Counted from the first letter of the stretch, positions 3,725 through 48,809 are shown. The stretch: 53,696 bases of DNA from Bacillota bacterium (GCA_023426265.1 JAFABA010000121.1:1-53696); one strand, 5' to 3'. Numbers and translations: made by a program. The notes: generated by a model not told the origin, from the sequence alone.

Positions 3725-4112
3725 ACTTTTCTCCTCTTTTATTATACGTTCGGTCAGCCTCTGGGGGGAAACAGCGCTCTAATGGCGCATTTGTGTTTTT
3801 GGCAAAAGGCGTTGTCGCAGTTGCGTGACACATCTGCGTTGACAATAGTATATACCGGGATTATCGTATGGACAATCCGATATGTTTGACCTATCGTCCG
3901 GCAACCCGGAAATTGCGGCGGTCTGCTTATTCGTTTTCTGGATCATAAGCACGGCAAGCCGGAAAAAAGAAAGCGCTGTATTGCAGGCGAGGGAAAAGAA
4001 TTCAAAGCGCGGCCCGGTATCTTAACGGATGCCGGGCTCTTCGTATACAATCTTCTTCATCGGAGATATAATAGTGCTGTTCTACCCATTTATTTGGAAA
4101 GAGGTTACAAGG

Positions 4113-4754: not shown

Positions 4755-4919
4755 CAAAGTTCTTCAGGCTATCAGCGGGTTTCTGTAGGTGAAAGTGCGC
4801 TGTTGTACTTTCCAGATTGCGCCTTATAATAGATACTAATGCGCAAATGGTGCAGGAGAATTCAAAACGCTGGGAGATAAGGAATAATCCAAACATCTTA
4901 CGCGTATGAAACAGGAAGC

Positions 4920-6122
4920 ATGAAGAAGGGAAAGTTCGGCATGACAGACCTGTTGATGAGGCTGTTTCTCAAAATAAAGCAGGATGAGGATACGGCGCGC
5001 AGGCGGCAGCGCTATGGCAATTTTGCAAGCATTGTGGGCGTTGTTTCAAACCTGCTGCTTTTTATTATGAAAATCCTCATAGGCCTCGCATCCGCCAGCG
5101 TTTCCATCATTGCGGACGCCGTGAACAGCCTCTCGGATTCGGCTTCTTCTTTTATTACGCTGTTCGGGTTTAAATTTTCATCAAAACCCGCGGACGCAGA
5201 CCACCCGTACGGCCATGCCCGCATGGAGTACATTTCCGGTCTGATCGTTTCGGTGCTCATTCTGTTCTTCGGGTTGCAGCTTCTGCAAAACTCGGTGCAA
5301 AAAATCATACATCCCGCGCCGGTGCATTTTGAACTGATTACGCTGGTCATACTCACACTTTCCATACTCATAAAGGTGTGGCAATGCCTGTTTTACCGGA
5401 AAATCGGCCATCTGATGAACTCCATCACGCTGCTTGCGGCTTCGGTGGACAGCCGGAACGATATCCTTTCGTCCTCCGCCGTGCTGCTCGCGGTGGCAGT
5501 TACCCGCCTGACAGGGCTTGATCTCGACGGCTACATGGGGGCCGTCGTCGCCGTGCTCATACTGTGGAGCGGCGTGAAGATGGTAAAGGATTCTGGCAGC
5601 ATTTTGTTGGGCACCGCGCCCACCAGGGAACTGGTGGACAGCATCTATAAAAGGATACTTGGTTACGAGCACATTATTGGCCTGCATGATTTAAGCGTGC
5701 ACAGCTATGGCGCGAACAAATGCTTCGCTTCCGTGCATTGCGAGGTCCCCGCCGAGCAGGATATCATGCTCAGCCACGATATCATAGACAACATCGAGCG
5801 CGATTTCTTAAAGGAATACGGCATCCATCTGGTCATCCACCTGGACCCGGTCGTTACAAACGATGCGCGCACGAACGAATTAAAAGCGAAGTTGGAGCAG
5901 CTGATCGCCGACCTCCCGCTCGACATCAGCATGCACGATTTCCGGGTGGTGTGGGGCATCAGCCATACGAACCTTATATTCGACGTCGTCGTGCCGTTTA
6001 ACGCCGACTGGAGTGACGAAAAGCTGATTGCCCATATGGCCGATGAAATCAGGAAGCTGGACCCGACCTATCACAGTGTTATCACCGTGGACCACACCTA
6101 CGTTCCGCACACGAAAGGATAA
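4920..6122 (+). CDS. Cation diffusion facilitator (CDF) family divalent-metal efflux transporter
   Basis: 400 aa. It has IIADAVNSLSDSASS (TM2 metal site), HPYGHARMEY, DSRNDILSS (TM5 site) and a C-terminal cytoplasmic domain (HDLSVHSYG...VHCEV). An alternative start is at 4941. Confidence 0.85.
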   Translation: MKKGKFGMTDLLMRLFLKIKQDEDTARRRQRYGNFASIVGVVSNLLLFIMKILIGLASASVSIIADAVNSLSDSASSFITLFGFKFSSKPADADHPYGHARMEYISGLIVSVLILFFGLQLLQNSVQKIIHPAPVHFELITLVILTLSILIKVWQCLFYRKIGHLMNSITLLAASVDSRNDILSSSAVLLAVAVTRLTGLDLDGYMGAVVAVLILWSGVKMVKDSGSILLGTAPTRELVDSIYKRILGYEHIIGLHDLSVHSYGANKCFASVHCEVPAEQDIMLSHDIIDNIERDFLKEYGIHLVIHLDPVVTNDARTNELKAKLEQLIADLPLDISMHDFRVVWGISHTNLIFDVVVPFNADWSDEKLIAHMADEIRKLDPTYHSVITVDHTYVPHTKG

Positions 6123-6142
6123 TCTGCTTTTGTAATATAAAA

Positions 6143-6170
6143 ATCCCCGCCGGGTCGGCCCGGCGGGGAT
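6143..6170. terminator. Bidirectional rho-independent terminator
   Basis: 12-bp GC-rich stem ATCCCCGCCGGG/CCCGGCGGGGAT with loop TCGG. It is flanked by an A-run on the left (T-run on the minus strand) and lies between convergent genes. Confidence 0.75.
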
Positions 6171-6195
6171 TTCCAGTATAAGCTGGATTAGCCTG

Positions 6196-8166
6196 CTATT
6201 GGGCGTCTTCTCCCGAGGCAGCCGCATACAGCTCCCGATAGAGCTCCTCCTGCATATATGTCCACATGCCGGTTTCTCCCGCCTGCATGCAGGGCTTTCC
6301 GTCCTGCAGGAAAATATAATACGTGGTGGCCGGTTCCCCTTCCGCAATGCTGGTATACAACTCGATACGCGCCTCAAACGACTCCACATCTACAGCAGGC
6401 GAGGCGGCGGAACGGATCATATGGTCCCAGACGACGCGCTGCGCCAAATCCTGATAGTCCGGATTGTCCTTTATAGAAACGGCGCGCACGGCTTTGCCGC
6501 CCTGTATCAGAGTGATGGCAGCGTCTTCCGCAACCGCTGCGGTTGGCGATGGTTCGGCTTCCGTAGTAACCTCGTTTTGCACGGCGGAGCCGGGCGAGGC
6601 TTCGGGCTCAACTGGATCCCGGATAACGGCAGCTTGCTCCGCTTGCAGCGCCGCCGCATCCTTTGTGGAGAACACGCATTTGAACAGGCAGATGTATTCA
6701 TGTTTTCCGATATGCTCGGGACTTTCCATAAGGAACTGGCAGTCATAGGAGAGAAGGGTATCGCCTTCGCCAAACACCACGTTTCCCAGCAGGATCGGTT
6801 CGTTAGCGGCAATGGGCCATGTTCCGTCCTCCTCGCCATAAAAAAGGAACGAAGCCGCACTGGAAGTCGGGACAAAGTCCGGCGGCAATTTAGAGTAGAA
6901 AGTAACCAAATCGCCGGAGGTTTCATCCGGAACCCTCAGAACCGTCCAACTTAGCCCGCTCATATTTCGGGCACTGGAATAGATACCGCCATAGGTTACG
7001 CTTTCTGAAATGGTAAAATTCCCCTCACGCCTATCCACGGGAAGGACGACATTGCCAAACGTGCCATAATATACGCCCTCGCGCCAGCCTTCCACATACA
7101 GCCGCACGCTTTTGATGGAAGGATCCACATGGTAGCTGTAGCGGTAATCTGCATCTTCGGGCAGCGTGGAAAGTTCCTTACGTTCGGCCTGCGTGATTGG
7201 CGTTTCGGTGATGGTGTTTACGGGCAGGGTGGGGGAGAGCGGGTTCAAAAGCAGCAGCACGGCTGCCGTCGCCGCAAGCGCAATGCCCACGGCCGCCATC
7301 CAGAATACAGGCTTTTTATATTGGAGCACATTCTTTATGCGAAGCTTCGTGTTGCTTTCCCCAAACGCAAGGGGAGCGAGAAGCGCCCCGCGCGAGATGG
7401 AGACTGCTAAAAGCGTGTTCGAGTATGCTTGCCGGATATCCTCCCCGGCGTTTTTTAACACCCGTTCATCGCAGGAAAGCTCCATATCCCGGCTAAAACA
7501 ATGATAGGCGAGATAGACGAGCGGGTTGAACCAGTGGAGTGCCAACACGAGGAAAGAGAGCGGCTTCCACAGGTGGTCGAGCCGTTTGATATGCATACGC
7601 TCGTGCAGCAGCACATGCGAAAGCTCCTTAGAAGCAAGCCCGGACGGCACATAGATCTTCGGGCGGAACACGCCGAACACAAACGCCGTGCCGATCCGGT
7701 CGCTTTCATATACGCCCGGCTCTAAAAGCGTAGCGAACCGGATGCGCCGATAAAACCGCAGCGTGGAGCACAGGGCATAAACGAGCATCGCGGCTATGCC
7801 CAAAGCCCATACCCAACCCCAAATCCACAGCGCGATCTGCGCCGGGTTGGCGGAAGCATAAGGCGCTGGGGACATGCTGTCTGCCAGCACGGGGTTGACC
7901 GCGGTGTTGAGCACGGGAATCCCAGTGTACACGGCAGGCGTTTGCGTCGTCAGGAATTCAGGCGGCACCGGTTCCACGCTGGGGATGAGCGCCAGTGCGC
8001 TTTCGAAGGAAAACGGGCAGACCAATCTGAACAATACGGCTGCCCACAGCGCATAGGAAATCCACTTCGGCGCTTTTTTCAACAGCAGGCGCAGTATGAG
8101 CACGGCGAGGATTACGACGCCGCCTGTATAGCTGATGTTGAGTATGACCCGGAATACTTGCTCCAT
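6196..8166 (-). CDS. BlaR1/MecR1-type M56 family membrane metalloprotease (signal transducer) with non-PBP C-terminal domain
   Basis: 656 aa. It has N-terminal TM segments and the HEXXH motif in LLHERMHIKRLDH. Its start overlaps the stop of the upstream BlaI-like gene. The roughly 340-aa extracytoplasmic C-terminal part shows no SxxK/penicillin-binding motifs that I can see. Confidence 0.75.
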   Translation of the reverse strand: MEQVFRVILNISYTGGVVILAVLILRLLLKKAPKWISYALWAAVLFRLVCPFSFESALALIPSVEPVPPEFLTTQTPAVYTGIPVLNTAVNPVLADSMSPAPYASANPAQIALWIWGWVWALGIAAMLVYALCSTLRFYRRIRFATLLEPGVYESDRIGTAFVFGVFRPKIYVPSGLASKELSHVLLHERMHIKRLDHLWKPLSFLVLALHWFNPLVYLAYHCFSRDMELSCDERVLKNAGEDIRQAYSNTLLAVSISRGALLAPLAFGESNTKLRIKNVLQYKKPVFWMAAVGIALAATAAVLLLLNPLSPTLPVNTITETPITQAERKELSTLPEDADYRYSYHVDPSIKSVRLYVEGWREGVYYGTFGNVVLPVDRREGNFTISESVTYGGIYSSARNMSGLSWTVLRVPDETSGDLVTFYSKLPPDFVPTSSAASFLFYGEEDGTWPIAANEPILLGNVVFGEGDTLLSYDCQFLMESPEHIGKHEYICLFKCVFSTKDAAALQAEQAAVIRDPVEPEASPGSAVQNEVTTEAEPSPTAAVAEDAAITLIQGGKAVRAVSIKDNPDYQDLAQRVVWDHMIRSAASPAVDVESFEARIELYTSIAEGEPATTYYIFLQDGKPCMQAGETGMWTYMQEELYRELYAAASGEDAQ

Positions 8167-8522
8167 TAGCGTTCCGCCTCCTCGATCATGCGTTTTAGCG
8201 CCAAAGCTTCCGCCGCAGTCAGCTTCCGGTCCCTGAGATACGCCGCAAGGAAAGCGGGGACGGACCCTGCGTAGCTTTTTTCAATCAGCTCCTCGCTTTC
8301 GTGCCGCGCCACTTCCTCCCGCGTCACGCAGGAACGCACAGTCGCGTTTTCGTTTACCACAAAACCCCGTTCCGCGAGACGCCTGATCATGTTGTAGGTG
8401 GTGGATTTTTTCCAGCCCAGGGCGGAAAGCGCAAGCCTGCTTAGTTCCGTGGAGTTGACAGGCTCCGCCTCCCAGATGATGTTCAAAAACCGTCGCTCCG
8501 CGTCAAACAGCCTGTAATCCAT
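8166..8522 (-). CDS. BlaI/MecI/CopY family transcriptional repressor
   Basis: The winged-helix N-terminus (ERRFLNIIWEAEPVNSTELSRLA...KKSTTYNMIRRLAERGFV) plus a C-terminal dimerisation helix are typical of the family. The ATG at 8522 has a GGAGGTG RBS. The track ORF extends to 8540. Confidence 0.8.
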   Translation of the reverse strand: MDYRLFDAERRFLNIIWEAEPVNSTELSRLALSALGWKKSTTYNMIRRLAERGFVVNENATVRSCVTREEVARHESEELIEKSYAGSVPAFLAAYLRDRKLTAAEALALKRMIEEAER

Positions 8523-8542
8523 CCCGCACCTCCAAAACACGT

Positions 8543-8579
8543 GGTTTGTCTTGATAGACCTAGTTTAACACGACAAACC
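8543..8579. promoter_or_regulatory. Candidate BlaI-type operator (inverted repeat) in the blaI/GNAT divergent region
   Basis: Perfect 8-bp inverted repeat GGTTTGTC (8543-8550) / GACAAACC (8572-8579), each arm adjacent to AACACG, about 20 nt upstream of the blaI-like start. Confidence 0.3.
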
Positions 8580-8681
8580 TCCTTATACAAGCACGTTTTA
8601 GAAAGAAATATAATCGTATCGTCCGGCAGCCAGAATGGAGTTGCATATCCTGCATCGGTGCGATACCTTTATGAGAGAAAA

Positions 8682-9239
8682 ATGAAAGGCAATTTTATGA
8701 TGATCGAAACAGAAAGGCTCATCACCCGGCGTTTTTGCGGGGAGGATTGGGAGGACCTGTACGCCTATCTTTCCGATCCCGGCGTTGTGCGCTTTGAGCC
8801 ATATGCGCCTTTTCATGCGGAGCAGTGTAAGCAGGAAGCCCAAAGACGGGAAGATGACGAAGCCTTTTGGGCGGTCTGTCTCAAAGAAAACGGCAGGCTG
8901 ATCGGGAACCTCTATTTTTCACGGCAGGCGGATGATACATGGGAGCTCGGCTTCGTGTTCAACGCCGCTTATCAGGGGAAAGGCTATGCCATGGAAAGCG
9001 CCCGTGCGCTTTTGGACCGTGCCTTTTCGAAATGGGAGGCACAGCGCGTAATCGCGCAGTGCAACCCGGAAAATAAAAAATCATGGAGGCTGCTTGAGCG
9101 TTTGGGTATGCGGCGGGAGCGGCATTTGATACAAAACGTCTCATTTCATAAAGACGTATCCGGTAATCCGATCTATGTGGATACCTATGAATATGAGCTA
9201 CTGTGCGGGGAATGGGAGCCTAACCGAATGAACAGCTAG
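8682..9239 (+). CDS. GNAT family N-acetyltransferase (RimJ/RimL-like)
   Basis: It begins IETERLITRRF..EDWEDLYAYLSDP, has the acetyl-CoA loop QGKGYAMES, and ends NPENKKSWRLLERLGMRRE. The start is uncertain (8682 or 8697); the track ORF from 8541 is probably over-extended. Confidence 0.75.
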   Translation: MKGNFMMIETERLITRRFCGEDWEDLYAYLSDPGVVRFEPYAPFHAEQCKQEAQRREDDEAFWAVCLKENGRLIGNLYFSRQADDTWELGFVFNAAYQGKGYAMESARALLDRAFSKWEAQRVIAQCNPENKKSWRLLERLGMRRERHLIQNVSFHKDVSGNPIYVDTYEYELLCGEWEPNRMNS

Positions 9240-9240
9240 A

Positions 9241-9270
9241 AAAAACCGGCCGCAATGCGGCCGGTTTTTT
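9241..9270. terminator. Bidirectional rho-independent terminator
   Basis: AAAAA-CCGGCCGC-AAT-GCGGCCGG-TTTTTT, a perfect 8-bp GC stem between convergent genes. Confidence 0.85.
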
Positions 9271-9285
9271 CTATAAGGGCAAAAT

Positions 9286-10359
9286 TCAATTATTGACGAT
9301 TTCGAGTATGGTCACATGCAACTTGGAAAAATCCTGCGCCAGATTGATGTACTCCTCTGTCGGCTTGCCATCCTTTATGATGCGAACGCGGGGTCGCAGG
9401 CAGTTGGTTTCAAAATTCGTGACCACCACGGCGAGCTCCCCGGTGCTCAGTTTGACGCAGGTGCCGATGGGGTAGGGGGCAACGCGTTTGGTGAATGCGG
9501 ATACGATATCCGGGTCGAACATGGTGTTGTAACCGCACATGATATACTCCACCGCGTCGGAAGGCAGCATTGCCCTGCGGTAGGGCCTGTCCGATATCAG
9601 GGCGTCATATACGTCCGCAATGCAGACGATGCGGCTGAATAGGTTGATCTGCGAGCCGGAAAGGCCGGAAGGATAACCGGAGCCGCTGAACTGCTCATGG
9701 TGCATCAAAGCCACAAGGCGGGCGTCTTCGGGTATGCTCTTGTTCGCGCAGAGGTAGTTGTAACCCAAAAGGCTGTGCCGCTTGGCCTGGTCCAGTTCTT
9801 CGGGCGACAGCTTGCCCGGTTTGTTGATGATGCGCTTGTCGATAAACACCTTGCCGATGTCATGCATTAGCGCGCCCAGAGTCAGGTTGTTGAGCGCCCG
9901 GTAGGAGAGCCCAAGCACTGTGCCGATCACGCAGGAAAGCACCGCGACGTTGATGCTATGGCTGAACGTATAATCGTCATAAGTGCGGATATCCACGATG
10001 TTTACCATGGTGTTGCGGTTGTGCATGATCTCCTCCACCATGTTGGAGATCACGTCGCGCAGCCGGTCGGTGTTAGAGAGCACCTTGCGCCCGCGGCTGT
10101 TTTCCGCTTCCACGAACATGGCCCGTACTTCCTGCTTGGCCCGCTGCTTGAGTTCGTCGCTGATAACGTGTGCGATCTGGATGTCGGAGGAGATGTCGTC
10201 GTCGATATATACGCCCTGAAAGCCCAGTTGCCGGATTTTGAGTATTTGGGATGCGGTGAGCGCCATTCCCTTCCGCAACAGCAGCCTGTTGCGGTCAAGC
10301 ACCAAATTGTTGGCCAGAACCTGCCCGACACGCAGACAGTTTGAGGGAATATATCTCAT
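9286..10359 (-). CDS. HD-GYP domain protein (putative c-di-GMP phosphodiesterase)
   Basis: It has HSINVAVL, LMHDIGK, HHEQFSGSGYPSGL and DVYDALISDRPYR, which are the HD-GYP signature. The ATG at 10359 has an AAGGGAGA RBS. It is the last gene of the che operon. Confidence 0.85.
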   Translation of the reverse strand: MRYIPSNCLRVGQVLANNLVLDRNRLLLRKGMALTASQILKIRQLGFQGVYIDDDISSDIQIAHVISDELKQRAKQEVRAMFVEAENSRGRKVLSNTDRLRDVISNMVEEIMHNRNTMVNIVDIRTYDDYTFSHSINVAVLSCVIGTVLGLSYRALNNLTLGALMHDIGKVFIDKRIINKPGKLSPEELDQAKRHSLLGYNYLCANKSIPEDARLVALMHHEQFSGSGYPSGLSGSQINLFSRIVCIADVYDALISDRPYRRAMLPSDAVEYIMCGYNTMFDPDIVSAFTKRVAPYPIGTCVKLSTGELAVVVTNFETNCLRPRVRIIKDGKPTEEYINLAQDFSKLHVTILEIVNN

Positions 10360-10449
10360 ACCCAATCTCCCTTAATACGCTCAAAAAACGGCAGGCAGGA
10401 TAAAATGTTCGTAACTACAATCATCCAACATGCCGTATATATTCTCATT

Positions 10450-12462
10450 TTATTCCAAAAGCCCAGTCACGTCAAGAATGAGGCTGACGCTGCCGTCCCC
10501 CAGTATGGTGCAGCCCGAAATGCCGTTCTGCCAGCCCAGGGAACGCGTGACATAAGGGGGCAGGGGTTTGATGACGGTCTGCTGCTCGCCGATGAGGCCA
10601 TCCACAAACAGGCAGTAACTGCGCTGGTCGCCTTCGAGCACCACAAGTATGCCGTTTTCAAATTCCGTTTCCGCACCCTCTATCCCAAAGAGCCGGTGCA
10701 GCCGGACGATGGGGTAGCACTTGCCGCGGATCAATATCATTTCGTTGCCGTCCGGGTCCTTGAACACCTCGCCGGGAGAGGACTTGAAGGATTTCATAAT
10801 GCTCAAAAGCGGCAATATGAATATCGAACCGCCCACGGAAACCTGCATGCCGGTGATGATGGCCAATGTCAGCGGGATGCGGAACTGCACGCTCATGCCC
10901 TTGCCGGGGACGCTGTCCACCGAAATCGTGCCGCCCATTTTCTCCACGTTGCGCTGCACCACGTCCATGCCCACGCCGCGCCCGGAGAATTCCGTAACCA
11001 CCTGGTTGGTGGAAAAACCCGGCGCGAATATGAGGGAATAGACTTCCTTATCCGTCATTTCGCTTTCCGGCTTCTTGACCAGGCCGACGTCAATTCCTTT
11101 TTTGAGTATCTTTTCACGGTCCAGACCTTGCCCGTCGTCGGATACGACAATCAGCACCTCGCCGCCGTTGTTGCGGGCATCCACGGTGATGCGCCCTGTT
11201 TCGGGCTTGCCCTTTTGCCGCCTTACGGCGGGCTCCTCTATGCCGTGGTCGATGGCGTTGCGGATGATGTGCATGAGCGGATCGCCAAGGTTGTCGATTA
11301 CGCTCTTGTCCATTTCCGTATCTTCACCGCTGATCTTTAGTTCCGCTTTCTTGTCCGTTTTTTTGCAGATATCGCGCAAAATGCGCTCCAGGCGGTGGAG
11401 GGTGGCGGATATGGGCATCATGCGGATGGACATTACGGTATCCTGCAGCTCGTCGGTCAATTTCCGAAGCTGGCGCGACGCTTTTTCGAACGATTCAACG
11501 CGCAGTTTCACAACCTCCGGATTCTTGGTGACGGTGGATTCCGCGATGACGATCTCGCCCACAAGGTCCATCAGCTTGTCCAGCTTTTCAAGCCGCACGC
11601 TCATAAAATTCTGCTTCTGGTGGGCGGCGGCTTGCTCCGTCGCCTGCCCGTTTTCTTCGGCGGGATTTGCGCTTTGTACGGCAGTGGCATGCCCGGCTTC
11701 CTGCTTTTCTGTGACTTCGGTTAAGGAAAATGATGCGAGAAAGAAGTTTGAGGATATTTTTTCTTCCAGCAACTCCCGTGTGGAGGAGGAGATCAATGTC
11801 ATGACGAAGCCGTGCTCTACGATATCTTCCTCGCTGCCGTCCTGTAAAACGTCCGCGGGGACGGTTGTAATGGAACTAACGTATGGCTCAACGGATTTTA
11901 TCACGCCGAACGCGCGTACGTTTTCCATTTTGCAGCCTTTTTCAAACCGGATTTTTACCTCGTACCGTTTTTCACCCGCTCCGGCTTCCGCAGCAGGCGC
12001 GGATGCAGTTGGGCTTGCGGTTGCGGCAGGCAAGTCTGTTTCCTGGGGTCCGCTCGTGCCCCCGTTTTTCAATTCCTTGTGATAGCGCGCAATTTCACCG
12101 AGCAGTTCCTTCGGATCCTTATCCGGCAATATACCGTCCTGAAGGCGCTCGATTTCATTTTTCAAAAAATCCTGCGCGGAGAACACAAGATCGCACACTT
12201 TGCGGTGGTCGTATTTCTTTGCCCTGTTGTCCCGGATAAAGGAGAACAGGTCTTCCATCGCGTGGGACAGGCGCGTCAGCCCGTCATAGCCCATCATGCC
12301 GCTGGAACCTTTTACGGTATGAAGAATACGGAATATGGCATCCACCTGCACCTCAGTAAAGCCATCCGCTTTCTCTGCGGTGAGCATATGGGTCTCCAAT
12401 TGGTCCAGTAACTGGAGGTTTTCAAAAATGTATACCTCTAAAAGGGAGTCGGACTGGGACAT
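10450..12462 (-). CDS. cheA: Chemotaxis histidine kinase CheA
   Basis: 670 aa. Elements seen are an HPt domain (FRILHTVKGSSGMMG), a dimerisation/H-box region, an HATPase (DHGIE...GRGVGMDVV) and a C-terminal CheW-like domain. Confidence 0.95.
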   Translation of the reverse strand: MSQSDSLLEVYIFENLQLLDQLETHMLTAEKADGFTEVQVDAIFRILHTVKGSSGMMGYDGLTRLSHAMEDLFSFIRDNRAKKYDHRKVCDLVFSAQDFLKNEIERLQDGILPDKDPKELLGEIARYHKELKNGGTSGPQETDLPAATASPTASAPAAEAGAGEKRYEVKIRFEKGCKMENVRAFGVIKSVEPYVSSITTVPADVLQDGSEEDIVEHGFVMTLISSSTRELLEEKISSNFFLASFSLTEVTEKQEAGHATAVQSANPAEENGQATEQAAAHQKQNFMSVRLEKLDKLMDLVGEIVIAESTVTKNPEVVKLRVESFEKASRQLRKLTDELQDTVMSIRMMPISATLHRLERILRDICKKTDKKAELKISGEDTEMDKSVIDNLGDPLMHIIRNAIDHGIEEPAVRRQKGKPETGRITVDARNNGGEVLIVVSDDGQGLDREKILKKGIDVGLVKKPESEMTDKEVYSLIFAPGFSTNQVVTEFSGRGVGMDVVQRNVEKMGGTISVDSVPGKGMSVQFRIPLTLAIITGMQVSVGGSIFILPLLSIMKSFKSSPGEVFKDPDGNEMILIRGKCYPIVRLHRLFGIEGAETEFENGILVVLEGDQRSYCLFVDGLIGEQQTVIKPLPPYVTRSLGWQNGISGCTILGDGSVSLILDVTGLLE

Positions 12463-42012: not shown

Positions 42013-42387
42013 TCACTTGCCGTCCTTTTTCTTTTTGGCCCGCGCGAACTGTAGGATCGAAAGAACAATCAGGAATATGCCGAACGCTTTTTTGAGCCAG
42101 TCCGCCTCCAGACAGGTTGCCAGGAAAGCGCCGCCGATCGCGCCGATTACGCCCCAAATCAAAAGAGGAAATGCTGTTTTTGCCTGTAATCGCCCGTCCC
42201 GCCGGTGGATAAAGAGAGCAAGCGCGGCGCCCGGCAAGAACGCCAGCATATTCACGCCCTGTGCCGCATGCTGGCCCATGCTTAAAAACAGCGTCAGGAT
42301 CGGTATAAGCACCGTGCCGCCACCCATACCCATGCCGGAAAGCACGCCGGAAACAAGCCCGGCTAAAAGATACCAAAAAAAGTTCAT
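42013..42387 (-). CDS. Half-size TSUP (TauE/SafE) family membrane transporter subunit
   Basis: 124 aa, about 4 TM segments, LLAGLVSGVLSGMGMGGGTVLIPIL motif. Confidence 0.7.
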   Translation of the reverse strand: MNFFWYLLAGLVSGVLSGMGMGGGTVLIPILTLFLSMGQHAAQGVNMLAFLPGAALALFIHRRDGRLQAKTAFPLLIWGVIGAIGGAFLATCLEADWLKKAFGIFLIVLSILQFARAKKKKDGK

Positions 42388-42752
42388 AGCAGCAGGCGGA
42401 CGCCCGCCGCAAGCATCAGAAGGGCAAACAGCCGGTCAATCCAGATAGAGCGCATTTTCCCCAAAAGTTTTGCGCCCAAAAAGCTGCCTGGGAGCACGCC
42501 CAGCGTAACAATGGGCACGAAATCAAATTCAATCGCTCCGCGGATCAGATAGACAACGATGCTGACGATGGAGAGCGGCAGCATCACCATCAGCGCCGTC
42601 GCATGGGCTTCCTCGCTTTTGAGCTTGCATAGGCGTTCCAAGACCACAACGGCGAGCATGCCGCCGCCGGCGCCGAATAGCCCGTTGGCGATGCCGGTAC
42701 ATATGGCTGCTATGGAAATCAGTAAGCGCGGCGTTCTCTCTTGTTTCTGCAT
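42384..42752 (-). CDS. Half-size TSUP (TauE/SafE) family membrane transporter subunit
   Basis: 122 aa, about 4 TM segments, GIANGLFGAGGGMLAVVVL motif. Its stop overlaps the start of the downstream half by 4 nt. Confidence 0.7.
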   Translation of the reverse strand: MQKQERTPRLLISIAAICTGIANGLFGAGGGMLAVVVLERLCKLKSEEAHATALMVMLPLSIVSIVVYLIRGAIEFDFVPIVTLGVLPGSFLGAKLLGKMRSIWIDRLFALLMLAAGVRLLL

Positions 42753-42975
42753 ACTTTTAAGATTGTTCGGTCATTTGATAATTATTCAGCAAATTATTGA
42801 TGCAAAATGACAAGGGGCATGTTATAATACTAACGGATTCGACGGGGTAACAGAAAAGTGAGATATTTGGCTTACTCAATGAATACGGTTCTTCGAATAC
42901 GGTTCTTTCAAGGAAGGGTGAGCATACCCTTTTTTGCTGTATAGAATATATGGCTTTACGGAAAATGCGGAAAGG

Positions 42976-44325
42976 ATGGTGTCAGCTTTGCCAAAGCTAA
43001 CCTTTCAGGGTGGCGTTCATCCCATGCATGATGTGCATGAAGGCAAGCTACCGACAAAGGATCTCCCGGTAAGGGATTTCACAACGGATACGGTATGTAT
43101 CCTGATGGGCATGCATTTAGGCGCGCCCAGTTCCCCCTGCGTACAGAAGGGGGACTATGTCAGGCTTGGCCAGTTGATTGGCGAACCGGTGGGCCCCCTT
43201 GGGCTTCCCGTTCACGCGAGCGTTTCGGGTGAGGTCATCGACGTTTCTCCCAAACAGCAGTTAAACTCGCATCCCGTTATGTGCGTGACCATCAAAAACG
43301 ACCATAAGGACGAATGGGTGGACGGTATCGTTGGCTTAGGGGATGTGGAGACGGTGGATTCTTCCCTTATCGTACCCGCCGTCAAGAACGCCGGTATCTG
43401 CGGGATGGGCGGCGCCTGTTTCCCCACGCACGTAAAGCTGACCGTGCGCGAAGGCCAGTATTGCGACACCATCATATTGAACGGCGCGGAATGCGAAACC
43501 CACCTGACGGCGGATTACCGCCTGATGCTGGAACATTCCGTGAAAATAGTGGACGGGCTTAGGGCTGCCATGCGCGCTTTGAATGTTAAGCGCGGCGTCA
43601 TCGCAATTGAGGACAACAAGCCTGAGGCAATCGCGCTCATGAAAAAGGCGGCGCAAGGCCGCGAGGGCGTAGAGGTTGCGGAACTTGTCACCAAGTACCC
43701 GCAGGGCGGTGAAAAACAGCTCATACAGGCCGTAACGGGTAGAGAGGTCCCGCAGAAGAAGCTGCCGCTTGACGCGCACGTCATCGTGCTCAATGTCAGC
43801 ACAGCGGCGGCAATCGCGGAAGCCGTCACCACTGGCCGCCCGCTCATCTCCCGTATTACCACGGTCACCGGCTGCGTAAATAAACCCGCGAACCTGCGCC
43901 TGCGCGTCGGCACCATATTTGCTGACGCCATTAAGGAATGCGGCGGGCTCGCAAAGGAACCCGGGAAAATTATCGCAGGCGGCGCTATGACGGGTATTCC
44001 CGCACCCAGCGACGAAGTATCCATGACCAAGGCGACAAACGGCATCGTCGTTTACAGCAGGGAAGAAGCCAAAGAATTTGAGGAGAACCCCTGCATCCGC
44101 TGTGCGCGCTGCGTTGCGGTGTGTCCGGCAGGCCTGAGGCCGTATCTGCTGAAGCATTACTGCGAGGACGGCAACCTTGCCGCCGCCGAAGCGGAAAACG
44201 TCATGGACTGCATCGTCTGCGGCAGCTGCTCGTTTGGCTGTCCGGCAAGGCTCCGGCTTACACAATCGTTTAAAGTTGCAAAGGATCAGATCATGGCTGC
44301 GCAAAGGGGAGGTGCAAAAAAATGA
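42976..44325 (+). CDS. rnfC: Rnf-type electron transport complex subunit C
   Basis: LTFQGGVHP start is typical for RnfC. It has a GAECETHLTADYR-type NADH/FMN region and two 4Fe-4S motifs (CIRCARCVAVCP, CIVCGSCSFGCP). The start is uncertain; the ORF is open from TTG 42934. Confidence 0.85.
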   Translation: MVSALPKLTFQGGVHPMHDVHEGKLPTKDLPVRDFTTDTVCILMGMHLGAPSSPCVQKGDYVRLGQLIGEPVGPLGLPVHASVSGEVIDVSPKQQLNSHPVMCVTIKNDHKDEWVDGIVGLGDVETVDSSLIVPAVKNAGICGMGGACFPTHVKLTVREGQYCDTIILNGAECETHLTADYRLMLEHSVKIVDGLRAAMRALNVKRGVIAIEDNKPEAIALMKKAAQGREGVEVAELVTKYPQGGEKQLIQAVTGREVPQKKLPLDAHVIVLNVSTAAAIAEAVTTGRPLISRITTVTGCVNKPANLRLRVGTIFADAIKECGGLAKEPGKIIAGGAMTGIPAPSDEVSMTKATNGIVVYSREEAKEFEENPCIRCARCVAVCPAGLRPYLLKHYCEDGNLAAAEAENVMDCIVCGSCSFGCPARLRLTQSFKVAKDQIMAAQRGGAKK

Positions 44326-45269
44326 ACCTGAAGCTATCTCCCGCCCCTCATGTCCTGAAGGCGGACAATACCCGGCGCCTGATGCTGGACGTCGTGATCG
44401 CGCTTGTTCCGGCCTCGCTTGCGGGCGTATATTTCTTTGGGGTCAAGGCGCTTATGCTGCTTGTGCTCAGCATGGTTTCCGCCGTGCTTTCCGAGTTCGT
44501 TTGGCAAAAGCTGATGAAGCTGCCCGTTCGGGTGGGCGACCTTTCCGCGCTCGTCACAGGCTTGCTGCTGGGGCTTAATCTCCCGGTCGGCGCGCCCTGG
44601 TGGCTGGCCGTGCTGGGAAGCGCTATCGCCGTCATACTCGTCAAGCAGCTCTTTGGCGGCATCGGCGATAACTTCTTAAACCCCGCCCTTACGGCGCGTG
44701 CGGTACTTCTTGCCTCATGGCCCGTATATCTCACCCGGTTTACGCTCCCCACGGGATTTAGCGGCGTGGACGTAGTCTCTTCCCCCACGGTGCTCGCCGG
44801 TTTTAACGCCAGCAACATGGACATGTTCCTGGGCAACATCCCGGGATGCATCGGGGAGGTGAGCAAGGTTGCCATATTAATCGGTCTTGCCTATCTCATC
44901 ATCAGGGGCACGATATTCGGCCATGTGCCCGTGATATTCCTCGGCGTTACCGCGCTCCTGGCGTGGGTCATGGGCCCGCAGGGGGCATTCACATTTGACG
45001 GCGATCCGCTGCGCGCCATACTCTCGGGCGGCGTGATGTTCGGCGCGGTGTTCATGGCTACGGACTATACCACCTGCCCCATGACCATCAAGGGCCAGGC
45101 GGTGTTTGCGGTTGGCTGCGGTATCATCTTATCCCTGATCCGCGCATACGGCACATACCCCGAAGGCGTTACCTATGCGATACTGATTATGAGCCTTGTT
45201 ACCCCGCTCATCGATAAATACATGCGCCCCAGGGTATATGGGTCTTCCCTGAAGGAGGCAAAAGCATGA
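44322..45269 (+). CDS. rnfD: Rnf-type complex subunit D (NqrB-like)
   Basis: 315-aa polytopic protein. LSPAPHV...MLDVVIALVPA...QLFGGIGDNFLNPAL...VDVVSSPTVLA sits where SGAT is usual. Confidence 0.85.
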   Translation: MNLKLSPAPHVLKADNTRRLMLDVVIALVPASLAGVYFFGVKALMLLVLSMVSAVLSEFVWQKLMKLPVRVGDLSALVTGLLLGLNLPVGAPWWLAVLGSAIAVILVKQLFGGIGDNFLNPALTARAVLLASWPVYLTRFTLPTGFSGVDVVSSPTVLAGFNASNMDMFLGNIPGCIGEVSKVAILIGLAYLIIRGTIFGHVPVIFLGVTALLAWVMGPQGAFTFDGDPLRAILSGGVMFGAVFMATDYTTCPMTIKGQAVFAVGCGIILSLIRAYGTYPEGVTYAILIMSLVTPLIDKYMRPRVYGSSLKEAKA

Positions 45270-45904
45270 AACAGAATAAAATGGTCGGCGCCTTCTTTGG
45301 CGGTATCCTGCCGGACAATCTGCCGTTCCGCCTGGCGGTGGCGCTGTGCGCCACGCTCGCGATCACGGTGAATGCGGGCAGCGGCCTGGGCCTGGGGCTT
45401 ACGACAGCTTGCGTGCTGATCTGCTCCAATCTCATCATCGCGCTTGTGCGCGGTCTCCTGCCCGAACAGGTCCGCCCGTTTGGCTATATGCTCATCATCG
45501 GGTTATTTGTATCCGCGGCGCAGATGCTGCTTGCGGCATCCTTCCCTGCATTAAGCGCAAATTTGGGCATTTATGTGGCGTTGATGGCGGTAAGCTGCAT
45601 ACTTCTTTCCCGTGTGAACGGCGCGGATGAAAAACCGCACGTCGTATCCGCTGGCGTCGACGGCCTTGTTGCCGGCCTGCTGTTTGCCGTAGCGCTTTTC
45701 ATACTCAGCGCCGTGCGCGAGCTTCTGGGCTTCGGCACGCTGTTTGGCGCGGCTGTGTTCGGGGAGGGCTTTGAGCCGATGCTGGTAGTAAAGGCTGTGC
45801 CCGGCGGGTTTATACTGCTCGGCGTGCTCTACGGCGTTGTCAACTACTTTATCAGAAAAGGCAAGGCTTCGGAAGATACGCAAGAAGGAGGGCTTAAAGT
45901 ATGA
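45266..45904 (+). CDS. rnfE: Rnf-type complex subunit E-like (NqrD-like)
   Basis: 212 aa. AVALCATLAIT versus the canonical LLGLCPLLAVT, and IYVALMAVSCILLSR versus IPLIVTNCIVVGR, with LRELLGFGTLFG. It is divergent but colinear with RnfE. Confidence 0.7.
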   Translation: MKQNKMVGAFFGGILPDNLPFRLAVALCATLAITVNAGSGLGLGLTTACVLICSNLIIALVRGLLPEQVRPFGYMLIIGLFVSAAQMLLAASFPALSANLGIYVALMAVSCILLSRVNGADEKPHVVSAGVDGLVAGLLFAVALFILSAVRELLGFGTLFGAAVFGEGFEPMLVVKAVPGGFILLGVLYGVVNYFIRKGKASEDTQEGGLKV

Positions 45905-46494
45905 CGTTGGAGGGCTTTTCCGGCATTGGCGAAGTGCTGCTGTTCATGGTGGCGTGCATCATTACAAGCAACTTCATCTTCTCCCGGGCATTAGGCGTGC
46001 TGCCGTTCTCCTCCAAGGGGGATCATGTGAAGGCCGCCGCGGGCATGGGCGTTCTCGTCGCGATTGTCATGACGCTTGTATCGTTCCTGGGCTTTGCGGT
46101 CTATCAATGGGTCCTGGTACCGCTTGAAGTTACTTACCTTGCAACCATCTGCTATCTTGCCGTGATTGCGGCGGTTACGCTGATAGGCCAGGCAATTCTC
46201 AAAAAGAACACCCCGGATACCGGGCTGTACTTCCCGCTGGTTATGGGCAACAGCGCCGTGCTGGGTGTGGTTCTTCTCAACACGGTGGGACAGTATGATT
46301 TAGTCAAGAGCGTGCTTTCGGGCGCGTTTGGCGGAATTGGCTTCCTCGTTGCCATCGTACTGATCGTTGGCGTGCGGGAAAGGCTTGAAACCTCCAAGGT
46401 GCCCAAAGCGATGCGCGGATTCCCCATAACGCTGGTGAGCGCAGGGCTGATGTCCCTTGCGTTCATGGGGTTCATGGGAATTGTAGGCCACTGA
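45901..46494 (+). CDS. rnfA: Rnf-type complex subunit A-like (NqrE-like), lacking both conserved Cys
   Basis: 197 aa, colinear with RnfA/RsxA (SNFIFSRALGVLPF..., GMGVLVAIVMTLVS, FPLVMGNSAVLGVVLLN, RERLE...P..MRGFPITLVSAGLMSLAFMGF). Confidence 0.8.
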   Translation: MTLEGFSGIGEVLLFMVACIITSNFIFSRALGVLPFSSKGDHVKAAAGMGVLVAIVMTLVSFLGFAVYQWVLVPLEVTYLATICYLAVIAAVTLIGQAILKKNTPDTGLYFPLVMGNSAVLGVVLLNTVGQYDLVKSVLSGAFGGIGFLVAIVLIVGVRERLETSKVPKAMRGFPITLVSAGLMSLAFMGFMGIVGH

Positions 46495-46527
46495 AAAACT
46501 CCACCCTCAAGCATTTAGACACGCTGA

Positions 46528-46558
46528 ACAGCGCCGAAATTCTTCGGCGCTGTTTTCT
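46528..46558 (+). terminator. Rho-independent terminator after rnfA
   Basis: 11-bp stem ACAGCGCCGAA / TTCGGCGCTGT with loop ATTC, followed by TTTCT. Confidence 0.8.
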
Positions 46559-46792
46559 CAGTTCCTCGAAAAATCCTTTGGAGGTTCGGGGACCGCAGCC
46601 CCTGAAGGCTTCAATCGCCGCAGGCGACATGCGCGGTGGCGGCGGAAGGCCTTATCCTTATATCGCAAGGCTTTCTTGCGGGAACAACCGCCCGTACCGT
46701 AGGTTCCTGTAATCCTCGAAGAAGTACCGCAAAGCATTTTTCGGCAAGCTAAACAACGCCGGCAGCATCGGCGCTATTTCATATGCTTTTTG

Positions 46793-47395
46793 CTACTTTG
46801 GCTGCATGGAGCTGAGCATTTGCGCAAGCAACAAGGGATTCATGCCGTTCATACCGCCGCCGCCATTCGCGTTGCCCATGCCGCCTTGGAGCATCTGTGC
46901 GAGCATCAGGGGATTCATGCCATTCATGTTCGTACCTCCCATGCCACCGCCCGTACCGCCGGCCGGGGCGCCGCCCATGCCGTTCATGCCGCTCATGCCG
47001 TTCATGCCGTTCATCATCTGCATGAGCGTCTGCATCATCTGCATATTGTTCGGGTTGGGGGCCTGCTGGTGCCCGTTAAAGGGCGGATCCTGTACCTGGG
47101 AGACGGGCTGGGGTGCCGTCTGCCGGGCATGGGCGGGCGGCTGCAGGTCGGTCGGGACGCCCATCGCATGGCACAGATCCTCATATTCGCTCTCGGTAAG
47201 GTGCTCCCGCATGGAAAGGACATACCGCTGTACACCCTGCATGCCGCGCTCACGCCTGATGTGCTGCCCCAACAGTACGGCCGGCTGACCGTGATCGGGG
47301 AACGTTGGCTCTTCGGTATCGCTCGCGTTCACAGCCTGCTGAACGGGCGGGCGCGAGCCGCCTACCGGCAGTGATTGCGGCGCATATTTGGGCAT
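46793..47395 (-). CDS. Hypothetical Met/Gly/Asn-rich low-complexity protein
   Basis: 200 aa with an AGGAGG RBS 7 nt before the ATG. The C-terminal half is MQMMQTLMQMMNGMNGMSGMNGMGG...GMNGMNPLMLAQML...GMNGMNPLLLAQML. No family was recognised. Confidence 0.6.
   Translation of the reverse strand: MPKYAPQSLPVGGSRPPVQQAVNASDTEEPTFPDHGQPAVLLGQHIRRERGMQGVQRYVLSMREHLTESEYEDLCHAMGVPTDLQPPAHARQTAPQPVSQVQDPPFNGHQQAPNPNNMQMMQTLMQMMNGMNGMSGMNGMGGAPAGGTGGGMGGTNMNGMNPLMLAQMLQGGMGNANGGGGMNGMNPLLLAQMLSSMQPK
46976..47011. repeat. Four tandem 9-bp units (CATGCCGTT/CATGCCGCT) inside the Met-rich gene
   Basis: Read directly: catgccgtt catgccgct catgccgtt catgccgtt, encoding (N/S)GM repeats on the minus strand. 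In addition there is a 39-bp imperfect direct repeat at 46814-46852 and 46889-46927 (6 mismatches). Confidence 0.9.
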
Positions 47396-47518
47396 ATGGC
47401 CACCTCCTTGTTTCGTGCCTTTGTAGCATCATATGCGCGTGAAGCAATGTTGTGCACTTGTGGCTATAAAGGCGCATATGATGATTGGGGACATCTTTTT
47501 AACAGCAGGAGGGAAAGC

Positions 47519-47812
47519 ATGAAAAAACCAGATCTTCGCAGCTTAAAGCAAAACCCGGACCAATTGCAGGAGGCGGCAAAAGGAATCGACCCGGAGGCGA
47601 TGCGCCAGGTGAAGAATGTACTGGATCATTATCAGGGAAGAAGTATGCAGGATCTGCTTGCTGAGTTGCAGGAAAAGATCATCGCGGAACGCAAAGCGGG
47701 CAGAATGAGCGACGCGCGCCTCGACTCATATGCAGCGATGATCGCGCCCATGATGGATCCCATGCAACGGCAGCAAATGCAGGCATTTGTGGAGCAGATG
47801 AAAAACAGCTGA
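47519..47812 (+). CDS. Hypothetical small helical protein (97 aa)
   Basis: An AGGAGGG RBS lies 5 nt before the ATG at 47519. It has no TM segment and a Met/Gln-rich C-terminus (MIAPMMDPMQRQQMQAFVEQM). It is divergent from the Met-rich gene. The track ORF from 47375 is over-extended. Confidence 0.55.
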   Translation: MKKPDLRSLKQNPDQLQEAAKGIDPEAMRQVKNVLDHYQGRSMQDLLAELQEKIIAERKAGRMSDARLDSYAAMIAPMMDPMQRQQMQAFVEQMKNS

Positions 47813-47816
47813 CGGC

Positions 47817-48809
47817 CTATGCCTTCCGCGGTACCTTTTCCTTGCAGAAATACCGCAGCACGGCGGACTCAAGCGCACGTTCTCCCGGCGCCTGGCCGCT
47901 GATTTGCAGGTGATCGATTTCTGAAAACGCGGCGACCGCCCCGCGCAGCTCCTCCGCGCTCAAGCGTTTTGCGCCGGACAGAGCGGCTTTTGCCGGGGCG
48001 GGGGAGAGGCCGAGCTTCTTCCCGATCTCAAATTCCTTCGTGCGGGCGTCAAGCAGCAGCCGTGCACCCAGCATGTTTTTAAACTGCCCGGTAAAGAAAT
48101 GGGCCAGGCCAAATACGGTTTCCGAACCGTCCCGCAGCAAATGCCGCAGCATGGTAAGCCCGCGTTCCTGCTTCCCGAAAAGCAGCGCGTCGAGCATGCG
48201 GAAACGCTGAAATTCCGGGTTGGGCGTGACACAGGCTTTCAGCGCAGCCTCCGTGACAGGGGAATTCCCGGCGTAATCCGCCGCTTTATTTAATTCGTTT
48301 TGCAGGGCGTACACGTCCGTGCCCACCATATCAACAAGCAACTGCGCGGTAGCGGCGTCGATCTGCGTGCCGCGCTTTTTCATGCGCTGCTGCACTAGTT
48401 TTACGGCTTCCTGCACGCTCAACGTATCGAAGAGCACGTCGCGGCCTTCTTTTTTTGCGGCATTCAACAGGGAAGTTCCGCATTTGCCGCGAAAATAGAG
48501 GACAAGCGTGGTGGTATCCGGTATGGAAGCGGCGTAGGGAATTAGCTCCATCGCTTCGCTGTCCGCCATTTCCCGGCAGACGACGAGCCTGCTTTCCGCA
48601 AAGAAGGGCAGAGTCTCGCAGGCTTGGCGTATGACGGAAGAGAGCGGCTTTTCAAACTCCTGCATGTTCAGGTCCCTGGCGACAGGGTCGATGCGCGAAA
48701 CAAGGGCGTTGAGCGCGCTTTGCTTTACGAACGCCTCTTCGCCGTAAAACAGGAACAGACCGGAGACCTTATTCTCTTTAATCAGCTCAAAAAAACGGTT
48801 GTGATCCAT
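47817..48809 (-). CDS. holA: DNA polymerase III delta subunit
   Basis: 330 aa. The N-terminal LFLFYGEEAFVKQSAL pattern and the position downstream of comEC match the usual Firmicute synteny. Confidence 0.75.
   Translation of the reverse strand: MDHNRFFELIKENKVSGLFLFYGEEAFVKQSALNALVSRIDPVARDLNMQEFEKPLSSVIRQACETLPFFAESRLVVCREMADSEAMELIPYAASIPDTTTLVLYFRGKCGTSLLNAAKKEGRDVLFDTLSVQEAVKLVQQRMKKRGTQIDAATAQLLVDMVGTDVYALQNELNKAADYAGNSPVTEAALKACVTPNPEFQRFRMLDALLFGKQERGLTMLRHLLRDGSETVFGLAHFFTGQFKNMLGARLLLDARTKEFEIGKKLGLSPAPAKAALSGAKRLSAEELRGAVAAFSEIDHLQISGQAPGERALESAVLRYFCKEKVPRKA

Follow-up and report, generated by a model that had tools for sequence, protein, structure and literature searches.

A selected and recurrent four-gene derivative of the Rnf operon that is predicted to lack the membrane iron-sulfur cluster

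Can an Rnf operon that is short of rnfG and rnfB, and whose RnfA lacks both of its conserved cysteines, still encode a ferredoxin:NAD+ (nicotinamide adenine dinucleotide) ion pump, and what else might it encode? The question is raised by a 53.7-kb stretch of DNA from a Bacillota bacterium (GCA_023426265.1, JAFABA010000121.1; the whole stretch is referred to as the window), which carries four translationally coupled open reading frames (ORFs) in the order rnfC-rnfD-rnfE-rnfA on its plus strand (42976-46494). Judged from its sequence, this operon is very unlikely to specify a ferredoxin:NAD+ ion pump. Because genes and cysteines have been lost and selection yet preserves all four genes, the complex probably has a job other than that of the textbook enzyme. 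The four genes are listed below, with the evidence on which each assignment rests.

42976 to 44325, plus strand: rnfC, cytoplasmic NADH/flavin mononucleotide (FMN) subunit with two [4Fe-4S] motifs, CIRCARCVAVCP and CIVCGSCSFGCP (TIGR01945, alignment to 9ERI_C)
44322 to 45269, plus strand: rnfD, membrane subunit (TIGR01946, PDB alignments, close-homologue alignment, column counts)
45266 to 45904, plus strand: rnfE-like gene (PF02508, TIGR01948, PDB and clade alignments, identity matrix)
45901 to 46494, plus strand: rnfA-like gene (PF02508, TIGR01943, PDB alignment, column counts)

The first ORF spans 42934/42976-44325, and consecutive genes overlap by 4 bp at all three junctions (44322-44325, 45266-45269 and 45901-45904). 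The overlap of the rnfD stop with the rnfE start leaves no space for rnfG between the two genes, as the original prediction had pointed out. Pfam assigned RnfC_N, Complex1_51K (PF01512), SLBB and Fer4 domains to the first gene, NQR2_RnfD_RnfE (PF03116) as the sole match over the 315 aa of the second, and Rnf-Nqr (PF02508) to both the third and the fourth. The NCBIfam cutoffs were passed by RnfC (TIGR01945, 466 bits vs a cutoff of 246) and RnfD (TIGR01946, 303 vs 207) and were not reached by RnfE (TIGR01948, 134.3 vs 213.4) and RnfA (TIGR01943, 158.9 vs 229.3). The best NCBIfam types were RnfE for the third protein and RnfA for the fourth, which rules out that the identities of the two are swapped. 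Full-length alignments to the matching subunits of the Acetobacterium woodii, Clostridium tetanomorphum and Azotobacter vinelandii complexes were obtained for all four proteins (E-values from 3e-116 to 7e-37).

Homologues of RnfG/FMN_bind, RnfB and ApbE were not found in the window, and no homologues of RnfG, RnfB or ApbE were found within 10 kb of the cluster in the related loci L001 and L003; an FMN_bind homologue was likewise absent from the window and from the clade loci. The strong terminator that had been predicted behind rnfA is present as a hairpin (46527-46554), and the next gene is a convergent ORF, so that rnfB is absent at this position as well. The operon does not provide the six-subunit Rnf set, which includes RnfB as the ferredoxin input and the flavinylated periplasmic RnfG. 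A C-D-E-A cluster without rnfG and rnfB is thus borne out by the ORFs, the Pfam and NCBIfam matches and the homologue searches of the window.

The Cys-less RnfA clade to which the window belongs comprises seven clusters at 90% identity with ~23 distinct sequences, all from metagenome-assembled genomes or metagenomes, one of which is labelled Feifaniaceae bacterium (NCBI). Four further, independent contigs (L001, L003/L004 (GCA_023425345.1), L090, and L091 (GCA_035561315.1)) carry an identical C-D-E-A arrangement, overlaps included, and none of them has rnfG, rnfB or either RnfA cysteine in the cluster. The identical junctions rule out an assembly error, and neither rnfG nor rnfB, which might have lain adjacent on a corrected assembly, is found there. 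Full synteny is seen in L001, L003/L004 and L090 (flagellar genes, FliW, CsrA, a TauE pair, rnfCDEA, two hypothetical genes, holA, comEC); L091 is a short contig that begins at rnfC, with only the downstream neighbourhood visible. Pairwise ratios of nonsynonymous to synonymous substitution rates (dN/dS), taken at dS values of 0.4-1.6, were 0.05-0.10 for rnfC, 0.07-0.14 for rnfD, 0.11-0.18 for rnfA and 0.19-0.35 for rnfE. All four genes are under purifying selection and, since the same cluster recurs on further contigs with dN/dS well below 1, they represent neither pseudogenes nor an assembly artefact.

In A. woodii, the membrane [2Fe-2S] cluster is ligated by RnfA C25 and C113 together with RnfE C25 and C108, and RnfA T110, T111 and E88 and RnfE R67 and E115 are assigned to the Na+ site and the ion pairs (PMC11889175). 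Alignment with characterised Rnf and Nqr subunits gave the following equivalences (A. woodii residue first).

RnfA C25: L34 in the window (ALGVLPF vs FLGICPF; PDB alignment)
RnfA C113: S118 in the window (GNSAVLG vs TNCAVLG; PDB alignment)
RnfA T110: M115 in the window
RnfA T111: G116 in the window
RnfA E88: Q97 in the window
RnfA K32: D41 in the window
RnfA L22, L108, N112, R154 and E158: kept in the window
RnfE C25, C108 and R67: kept in the window, as C28, C111 and R70
RnfE E115: N118 in the window

The exchange of Cys for Leu and of Cys for Ser that had been proposed for RnfA is confirmed by this alignment, in which Leu34 and Ser118 stand at C25 and C113: the cysteines are absent and not merely shifted. 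The retention of both cysteines in the RnfE-like protein holds equally. The 120 top-ranking RnfA homologues in the database comprise 113 from outside the clade and the seven clade clusters; the positions C25, C113, T110, T111 and E88 are occupied by C, C, T, T and E in 113/113 non-clade sequences. In the clade clusters, C25, C113, T110 and T111 are replaced in 7/7 and E88 in 6/7; the residues found at the five positions are L/M, S/G, M/L, G/A and Q/E, respectively, and because the replacements differ within the clade, they do not constitute new ligands. The equivalent of RnfE E115 is N, H, Y or deleted across the clade. The four-Cys complement of the membrane [2Fe-2S] cluster is therefore incomplete, with the two RnfA cysteines gone and the two RnfE cysteines present, and only the equivalent of R67 (R70) is left of the Na+-site and ion-pair set.

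Mutants of A. woodii that lacked the cluster cysteines had lost both growth and activity (Kumar et al., PMC11889175). It is well supported by the replaced residues that electron flow from ferredoxin through RnfB and the RnfA/E [2Fe-2S] cluster to the FMN of RnfG, as well as redox-driven Na+ pumping of the A. woodii type, should not be able to operate. As RnfB donates electrons to the membrane cluster and RnfG receives them from it, a supply of these two subunits in trans would not restore the canonical path.

RnfC and RnfD make up the second of the transmembrane legs along which electrons travel in the canonical enzyme, and this half is retained. RnfC aligned over its full length to A. woodii RnfC (9ERI_C, E = 3e-116), and its NADH/FMN domain and its two CxxCxxCxxxCP [4Fe-4S] motifs are fully canonical. 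A. woodii RnfD carries covalent FMN at T156 and has the riboflavin ligands N123 and D249 (PMC11889175); in the window RnfD, the riboflavin ligands (N120, D248), the flavinylation residue Thr156 and D150 are all present. The motif reads D-V-V-S-S-P-T156, and a gap-free alignment with 69%-identical relatives places DVVSSPTVLA opposite DAVSSATPLA. An alternative placement by HMMER, which set Ser154 at A. woodii T156, was rejected, given that the gap-free alignment puts Thr156 there. Among 120 RnfD homologues (110 non-clade and 10 clade sequences), Thr156 is invariant (120/120) and position -1 is Ala in 104/110 non-clade and Pro in 10/10 clade members; the Pro/Val difference at +1 is ordinary variation. 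Measured against the ApbE-type motif D-x-x-[ST]-[GST]-A-[ST], D150 and Thr156 fit, but throughout the clade Pro stands in place of the -1 Ala. The original prediction that the flavinylation context is altered therefore stands in part: the -1 exchange is real and clade-specific, but the target Thr is retained, and clostridial RnfD usually reads [ST][ST]-A-T and not S-G-A-T.

The nearest Cys-bearing RnfA is 56% identical and belongs to a sister lineage (loci L006 and L092 (GCA_964440115.1)). Its gene order is TauE pair, rnfC-D-E-A-B and a DUF1846 gene, followed by hyp182, hyp93, holA and comEC in common with the window. Only ~40 bp separate rnfD from rnfE, so that rnfG is absent there too; all four cysteines, the TTNC motif, the glutamates and the SSAT motif are intact. 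In these loci (L006 6355-8004 and L092 7741-9384), rnfG was found neither in the operon nor within 8-10 kb, and conservation of RnfA is extreme (94% identity across the two loci). Because the operon has no rnfG and its canonical RnfA and RnfE are highly constrained, RnfG is probably encoded elsewhere in this lineage; its layout suggests this, or else that an Rnf without RnfG can work. In two publications, the designation rnfCDEAB is used in passing for Limnochordia and DTU015 genomes (PMC11456536, PMC10215811). More distant relatives show C-D-G-E-A-B (L010, L011) or G-C-D-E-A-B with ApbE nearby (L008). The latter locus (3583-11714) comprises NusG_II, Hpre_diP_synt_I, FMN_bind (RnfG-like), rnfC-D-E-A-B, a 249-aa lipoprotein-like gene and ApbE.

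A stepwise series from CDGEAB via CDEAB to CDEA would be the parsimonious account of these layouts. According to it, rnfG appears to have left the operon before the common ancestor with the Cys-bearing sister lineage, and the branch to the window clade would have seen the loss of rnfB and the DUF1846 gene as well as of the RnfA cysteines, the Thr-Thr pair and Glu of RnfA and the Glu115 of RnfE. Neither rnfB nor DUF1846 left a remnant that could be detected by tblastn in the 299-bp spacer behind rnfA or in the whole window, which indicates a clean loss. RnfE and RnfA evolved several-fold faster afterwards, with unbroken reading frames on which purifying selection still acts. Identity to the sister lineage is 76% in RnfC and 69% in RnfD, both of which are equally distant from the outgroups in the two lineages, whereas RnfE and RnfA reach only 40% and 57%, respectively, against any Cys-bearing relative; the Cys-bearing relatives among themselves are 66-78% identical in RnfE and RnfA. 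The ratio dN(A)/dN(C) is ~3 in the clade vs 0.41 in the sister pair, and dN(E)/dN(C) is ~4 vs 1.3, i.e. rnfA and rnfE evolve, relative to rnfC, at 3-8x the rate of the sister lineage. RnfC and RnfD remain constrained as in canonical operons.

A profile search over 1.84 billion 50%-identity representatives recovered the window clade as a single cluster at 387 bits, with the next score at 185 bits. Among the other 149 representatives, the second Cys is missing from 26, and many lack both. The best of the other Cys-less RnfA proteins (P0267) lies in locus L093, in a C-D-E-A cluster (643-2782) that is followed by an opposite-strand hydrolase gene, and the same lineage is represented by the 116-kb contig L097 (8604-12081), which reads TauE, C-D-E-A, hemerythrin and contains frameshifts typical of long-read error. 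In this second CDEA lineage, RnfA and RnfE are without all four cysteines and RnfC and RnfD are kept; its RnfD is 76-79% identical to that of the window and has a perfect D-A-V-T-S-A-T motif. The -1 Ala-to-Pro exchange is accordingly confined to the window clade and lies outside the Cys-loss syndrome. Cys-less RnfA genes that are more distant lie on three short metagenomic contigs; these too have no rnfB after rnfA, and at least one RnfE Cys is lost in each: L095 (1044-2294; D-E-A, then a gene with a flavin adenine dinucleotide (FAD) synthetase domain), L096 (817-1922; E-A, then a CobA/CobO/BtuR gene, with an ORF 5' of rnfE that is not RnfD) and L094 (419-991; E-A). Among these three, rnfD directly abuts rnfE, without rnfG, only in L095; its FAD synthetase neighbour is possibly relevant to a flavin-dependent module. 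As L093/L097, L094, L095 and L096 all show both features, loss of cluster ligands and absence of rnfB (and of rnfG, where this can be seen) co-occur repeatedly, and the CDEA architecture is not unique to the window organism. A search of the literature on partial or Rnf-like operons returned nothing on Cys-less RnfA/E or CDEA operons.

The conserved losses, the replaced residues, the precedent of the Cys mutants and the signature of selection together support the original prediction of a diverged or repurposed membrane module that is not a standard ferredoxin:NAD+ oxidoreductase. That prediction needs amendment in that the RnfD target Thr is kept, the loss was stepwise and the architecture is shared with other organisms.

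As to what the module may do instead, we lean, with moderate confidence, towards an RnfC-RnfD electron module that works one way, is linked to NAD(H) and is accompanied by cofactor-less RnfA and RnfE. Only the RnfC-RnfD half of the electron path would be used: electrons from NADH would enter the FMN of RnfC, pass through the two [4Fe-4S] clusters to the riboflavin of RnfD and possibly go on to an FMN bound covalently on RnfD's outer face. The NAD(H) pool of the cytoplasm would thereby be tied to a membrane or extracytosolic redox partner that is encoded elsewhere and might serve as donor or acceptor, and RnfE and RnfA would be kept as structural subunits for assembly or stability. One-way use of half the path through an RnfD-like subunit has been proposed for NQR/RNF-like systems (PMC8238504, PMC10979944). 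Several points weigh against this proposal. The Pro at -1 may impair flavinylation of RnfD, as an Ala-to-Val exchange at the same position of another ApbE substrate reduced flavinylation to ~50% (PMC12052999). No partner or acceptor is apparent among the genes of the window, which are mainly flagellar and chemotaxis genes, and stray rnfG, rnfB or apbE genes or a second rnf operon may lie outside the 53.7 kb. Finally, a purely structural role does not explain why RnfE and RnfA are retained under selection, nor why RnfE keeps both of its cysteines in the window clade but not in L093/L097.

The electrons might instead end in the membrane. As a non-pumping NADH:quinone oxidoreductase, the complex would pass electrons from the riboflavin of RnfD to membrane quinone, as NqrB does in the NADH:quinone oxidoreductase that translocates Na+ (Na+-NQR), without a crossing to the outer face. 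The homologous riboflavin of NqrB reduces quinone in NQR (PMC12174285), RnfD retains N120 and D248 as ligands of its riboflavin, and the Pro beside the flavinylation Thr could have made the outer FMN dispensable. The invariance of Thr156, which includes the clade, argues on the contrary for continued use of the covalent FMN site, and the second CDEA lineage holds a perfect D-x-x-T-S-A-T motif; quinone reduction thus appears an unlikely function.

Signs of upkeep or decay may also be sought outside the coding regions. The regulatory elements and the adjoining gene pair are listed below.

42820 to 42828, plus strand: putative extended -10 promoter-like element TGTTATAAT, 5' of rnfC, read from the sequence
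42910 to 42935, plus strand: leader hairpin, core GGGUG/UACCC, that leads into a U6 tract, ~40 nt 5' of the rnfC start (fold)
46527 to 46554, plus strand: intrinsic terminator hairpin with a 12-bp stem and a 4-nt loop, then TTTTCTC, which ends the operon after rnfA
42013 to 42752, minus strand: TauE/SafE half-size gene pair, divergent from rnfC (PF01925 halves)

The start of rnfC is ambiguous (ATG 42976, GTG 42979 or TTG 42988); as ATG 42976 is ACG in relatives, one of the latter two may serve. The promoter-like element is the same in L001 and reads TGCTATACT at the aligned position of the sister locus L006; it was omitted by a consensus promoter scan because a good -35 hexamer is absent. The core of the leader hairpin, AGGG...CCCTTTTTT, is unchanged in the window, L001, L003 and L006, i.e. 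in the CDEA clade and its Cys-bearing sister, and the hairpin may act as a transcription attenuator. An Rfam scan of 42300-47900 at E-values of up to 1 found neither a riboswitch nor a known leader, its sole match being a chance microRNA. The rnfC leader further contains tandem copies of GAATACGGTTCTT (42881-42893 and 42895-42907), of which a single copy occurs in L001 and L003. The terminator hairpin folds with a free energy of -24.1 kcal/mol (z = -6.2, 0/200 shuffles as good) and is kept in L091, where a blastn search with the spacer found it to be the only shared part. The spacer behind rnfA (window 46495-46792) measures 299 bp in the window, 285 bp in L091 and ~75 bp in L001 and L003, and none of the loci compared holds a match to it other than the terminator hairpin.

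The TauE gene at 42384-42752 fits the C-terminal half of PF01925 and that at 42013-42387 the N-terminal half; the C-terminal half is encoded first and the two genes overlap. In L097, TauE is a single 212-aa gene and not split. TauE divergently adjoins rnfC in the window clade, the sister CDEAB loci and the second CDEA lineage, despite different outer flanks; the pair is a conserved neighbour of the rnf cluster. The convergent ORF behind the terminator, for which no function was assigned, encodes a 200-aa protein (46793-47395, minus strand) with a Met/Gly/Asn-rich low-complexity C-terminal half, and beyond it lies the gene for a 97-aa helical protein (47519-47812, plus strand). Both are without a Pfam match and are syntenic orthologues of hyp182 (E = 9e-30) and hyp93, respectively, of the sister locus L092. 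A large flagellar/chemotaxis region (CheA, CheR, CheB, FliK, FliD, FliS, FlgK, FlgL, FliW, CsrA etc.) occupies 10450-41948, which places the rnf-like operon at the edge of a motility island.

A decaying relic, that is an operon on its way to pseudogenisation that has no function or of which only RnfC is used, would agree with the stepwise loss of parts and cofactor ligands, with the relaxed constraint on RnfE and RnfA (dN/dS of up to 0.35 and a rate 3-8x higher relative to RnfC) and with their scores below the NCBIfam cutoffs. We consider it quite unlikely in the face of four intact ORFs whose 4-bp overlaps are kept on four further contigs at dS values of 0.4-1.6, dN/dS ratios well below 1 in every gene (RnfD 0.07-0.14), retention of all four genes in a second CDEA lineage, and conserved promoter, leader and terminator elements.

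Alternatively, RnfE and RnfA could form a redox-independent ion channel or transporter, with RnfC and RnfD as an NADH-sensing regulatory module and possibly in concert with the adjacent TauE-type transporter. Purifying selection on RnfE and RnfA persists after the loss of the cofactor, the gating leucines (L31, L113) as well as N117 and R70 are kept, and the adjacency to TauE is common to three lineages with different outer flanks. Set against this, the residues that bind or attract Na+ (RnfA T110, T111 and E88; RnfE E115) are replaced and vary within the clade, the TauE adjacency also exists in the canonical-Cys sister and is therefore not specific to CDEA operons, and such a repurposing has no known precedent; a role of this kind is highly improbable.

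Scarcely credible, finally, is an Rnf pump of the standard ferredoxin:NAD+ type, with rnfG and rnfB located elsewhere in the genome: flexible gene order in relatives (the FMN_bind (RnfG) gene 5' of rnfC in L008) and the sister operon, in which canonical, constrained RnfA and RnfE persist and RnfG is probably supplied in trans, would speak for it, but RnfB acting in trans would find no acceptor (2/4 [2Fe-2S] ligands gone here, 4/4 in L093 and L097), the A. woodii Cys mutants are inactive, otherwise invariant Na+-site residues are replaced, rnfB has been lost from its syntenic position without a remnant and, as a weak further indication, none of the 120 best listed homologues of RnfB, RnfA or RnfD was placed on the large CDEA contigs (768, 740 and 614 kb).

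The preferred reading, a one-way RnfC-RnfD module, can be set beside systems already described. With canonical RnfCDGEAB complexes (9ERI, 7ZC6, 8AHX), the window operon shares four chains that align over their full length, the cofactor motifs of RnfC, the riboflavin ligands and flavinylation Thr of RnfD and the clostridial gene order C-D-(G)-E-A-(B). It differs from them in the lack of RnfG, RnfB, the RnfA cysteines, T110/T111/E88 and RnfE E115, in the -1 Pro of RnfD and in the sub-cutoff scores of RnfE and RnfA. The sister rnfCDEAB operons have the same neighbourhood (TauE pair, hyp182, hyp93, holA, comEC) and likewise no rnfG between rnfD and rnfE, whereas they keep rnfB, the four cysteines, TTNC, the glutamates and SSAT and show very strong conservation of RnfA.

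The two-subunit NQR/RNF-like systems (Meheust et al. 2021, PMC8238504; PMC10979944) resemble the window operon in that they consist of a partial Rnf/Nqr set, for which one-way, NAD(P)H-linked electron transfer along just one of the two transmembrane paths has been proposed. In these systems, however, the RnfD-like domain carries at its C-terminal end an NqrF-type NAD-binding domain (PF00175) as a fusion, which the window RnfD does not have, and an FMN_bind partner is present in the absence of RnfA, RnfE and the flavinylation Thr, whereas the window has a separate canonical RnfC, keeps RnfE, RnfA and the Thr and contains no FMN_bind gene. Since both defining features, the fusion and the FMN_bind neighbour, are absent, the window cluster is an analogue and not a member of this group. 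Na+-NQR (Vibrio cholerae NqrA-F) has a homologous membrane core, with RnfA, RnfE and RnfD aligning to NqrE, NqrD and NqrB, respectively. In contrast to the window, NQR keeps the four-Cys cluster; the window RnfC carries cofactors absent from NqrA, and NqrF and NqrC are missing. The NCBIfam models for nqrA, nqrB, nqrD and nqrE gave scores of 17-156 bits vs cutoffs of 235-505, none of which was reached. PrdC of proline reductase is, like the RnfC proposed here, an RnfC homologue that works outside a full Rnf complex; unlike it, the window RnfC is coupled to rnfD, rnfE and rnfA, it scored 208.8 bits vs a cutoff of 490 for the PrdC model (TIGR04481), and no prd genes were found in the window.

A wider generalisation is offered tentatively and seems to us possible but doubtful: cluster-less CDEA operons might form a hitherto unrecognised, recurrent class of Rnf derivatives in which RnfC-RnfD serves as a quinone-independent transmembrane wire from NADH via an outer-face flavin to extracytosolic reductases or acceptors, and in which RnfE/RnfA no longer serve in redox chemistry and Na+ pumping and have taken on another role, structural or transport-related. 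If so, the several independent lineages L093/L097, L094, L095 and L096 would be convergent or ancient members of the class.

What the locus appears to represent is a four-gene Rnf operon derivative that is selected, recurrent and cluster-less. A recent review counts the four membrane subunits, together with their cofactors ([2Fe-2S], two covalent FMNs and riboflavin), as the strictly conserved, energy-conserving core of Rnf and Nqr (PMC12174285); the window operon is a natural variant that contradicts this stated strict conservation. It can be viewed as a dissection of the pump by nature, in which RnfC-RnfD can persist without the ferredoxin branch, and it provides a system for asking which roles RnfA and RnfE have beyond holding the cluster. 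Metabolic reconstructions that score Rnf as present from matches to rnfC, rnfD, rnfA or rnfE would wrongly ascribe ion pumping driven by ferredoxin to these gut-associated Clostridia. Should the half-path be used for extracytosolic electron transfer, a new route would join those catalogued for flavinylated systems.

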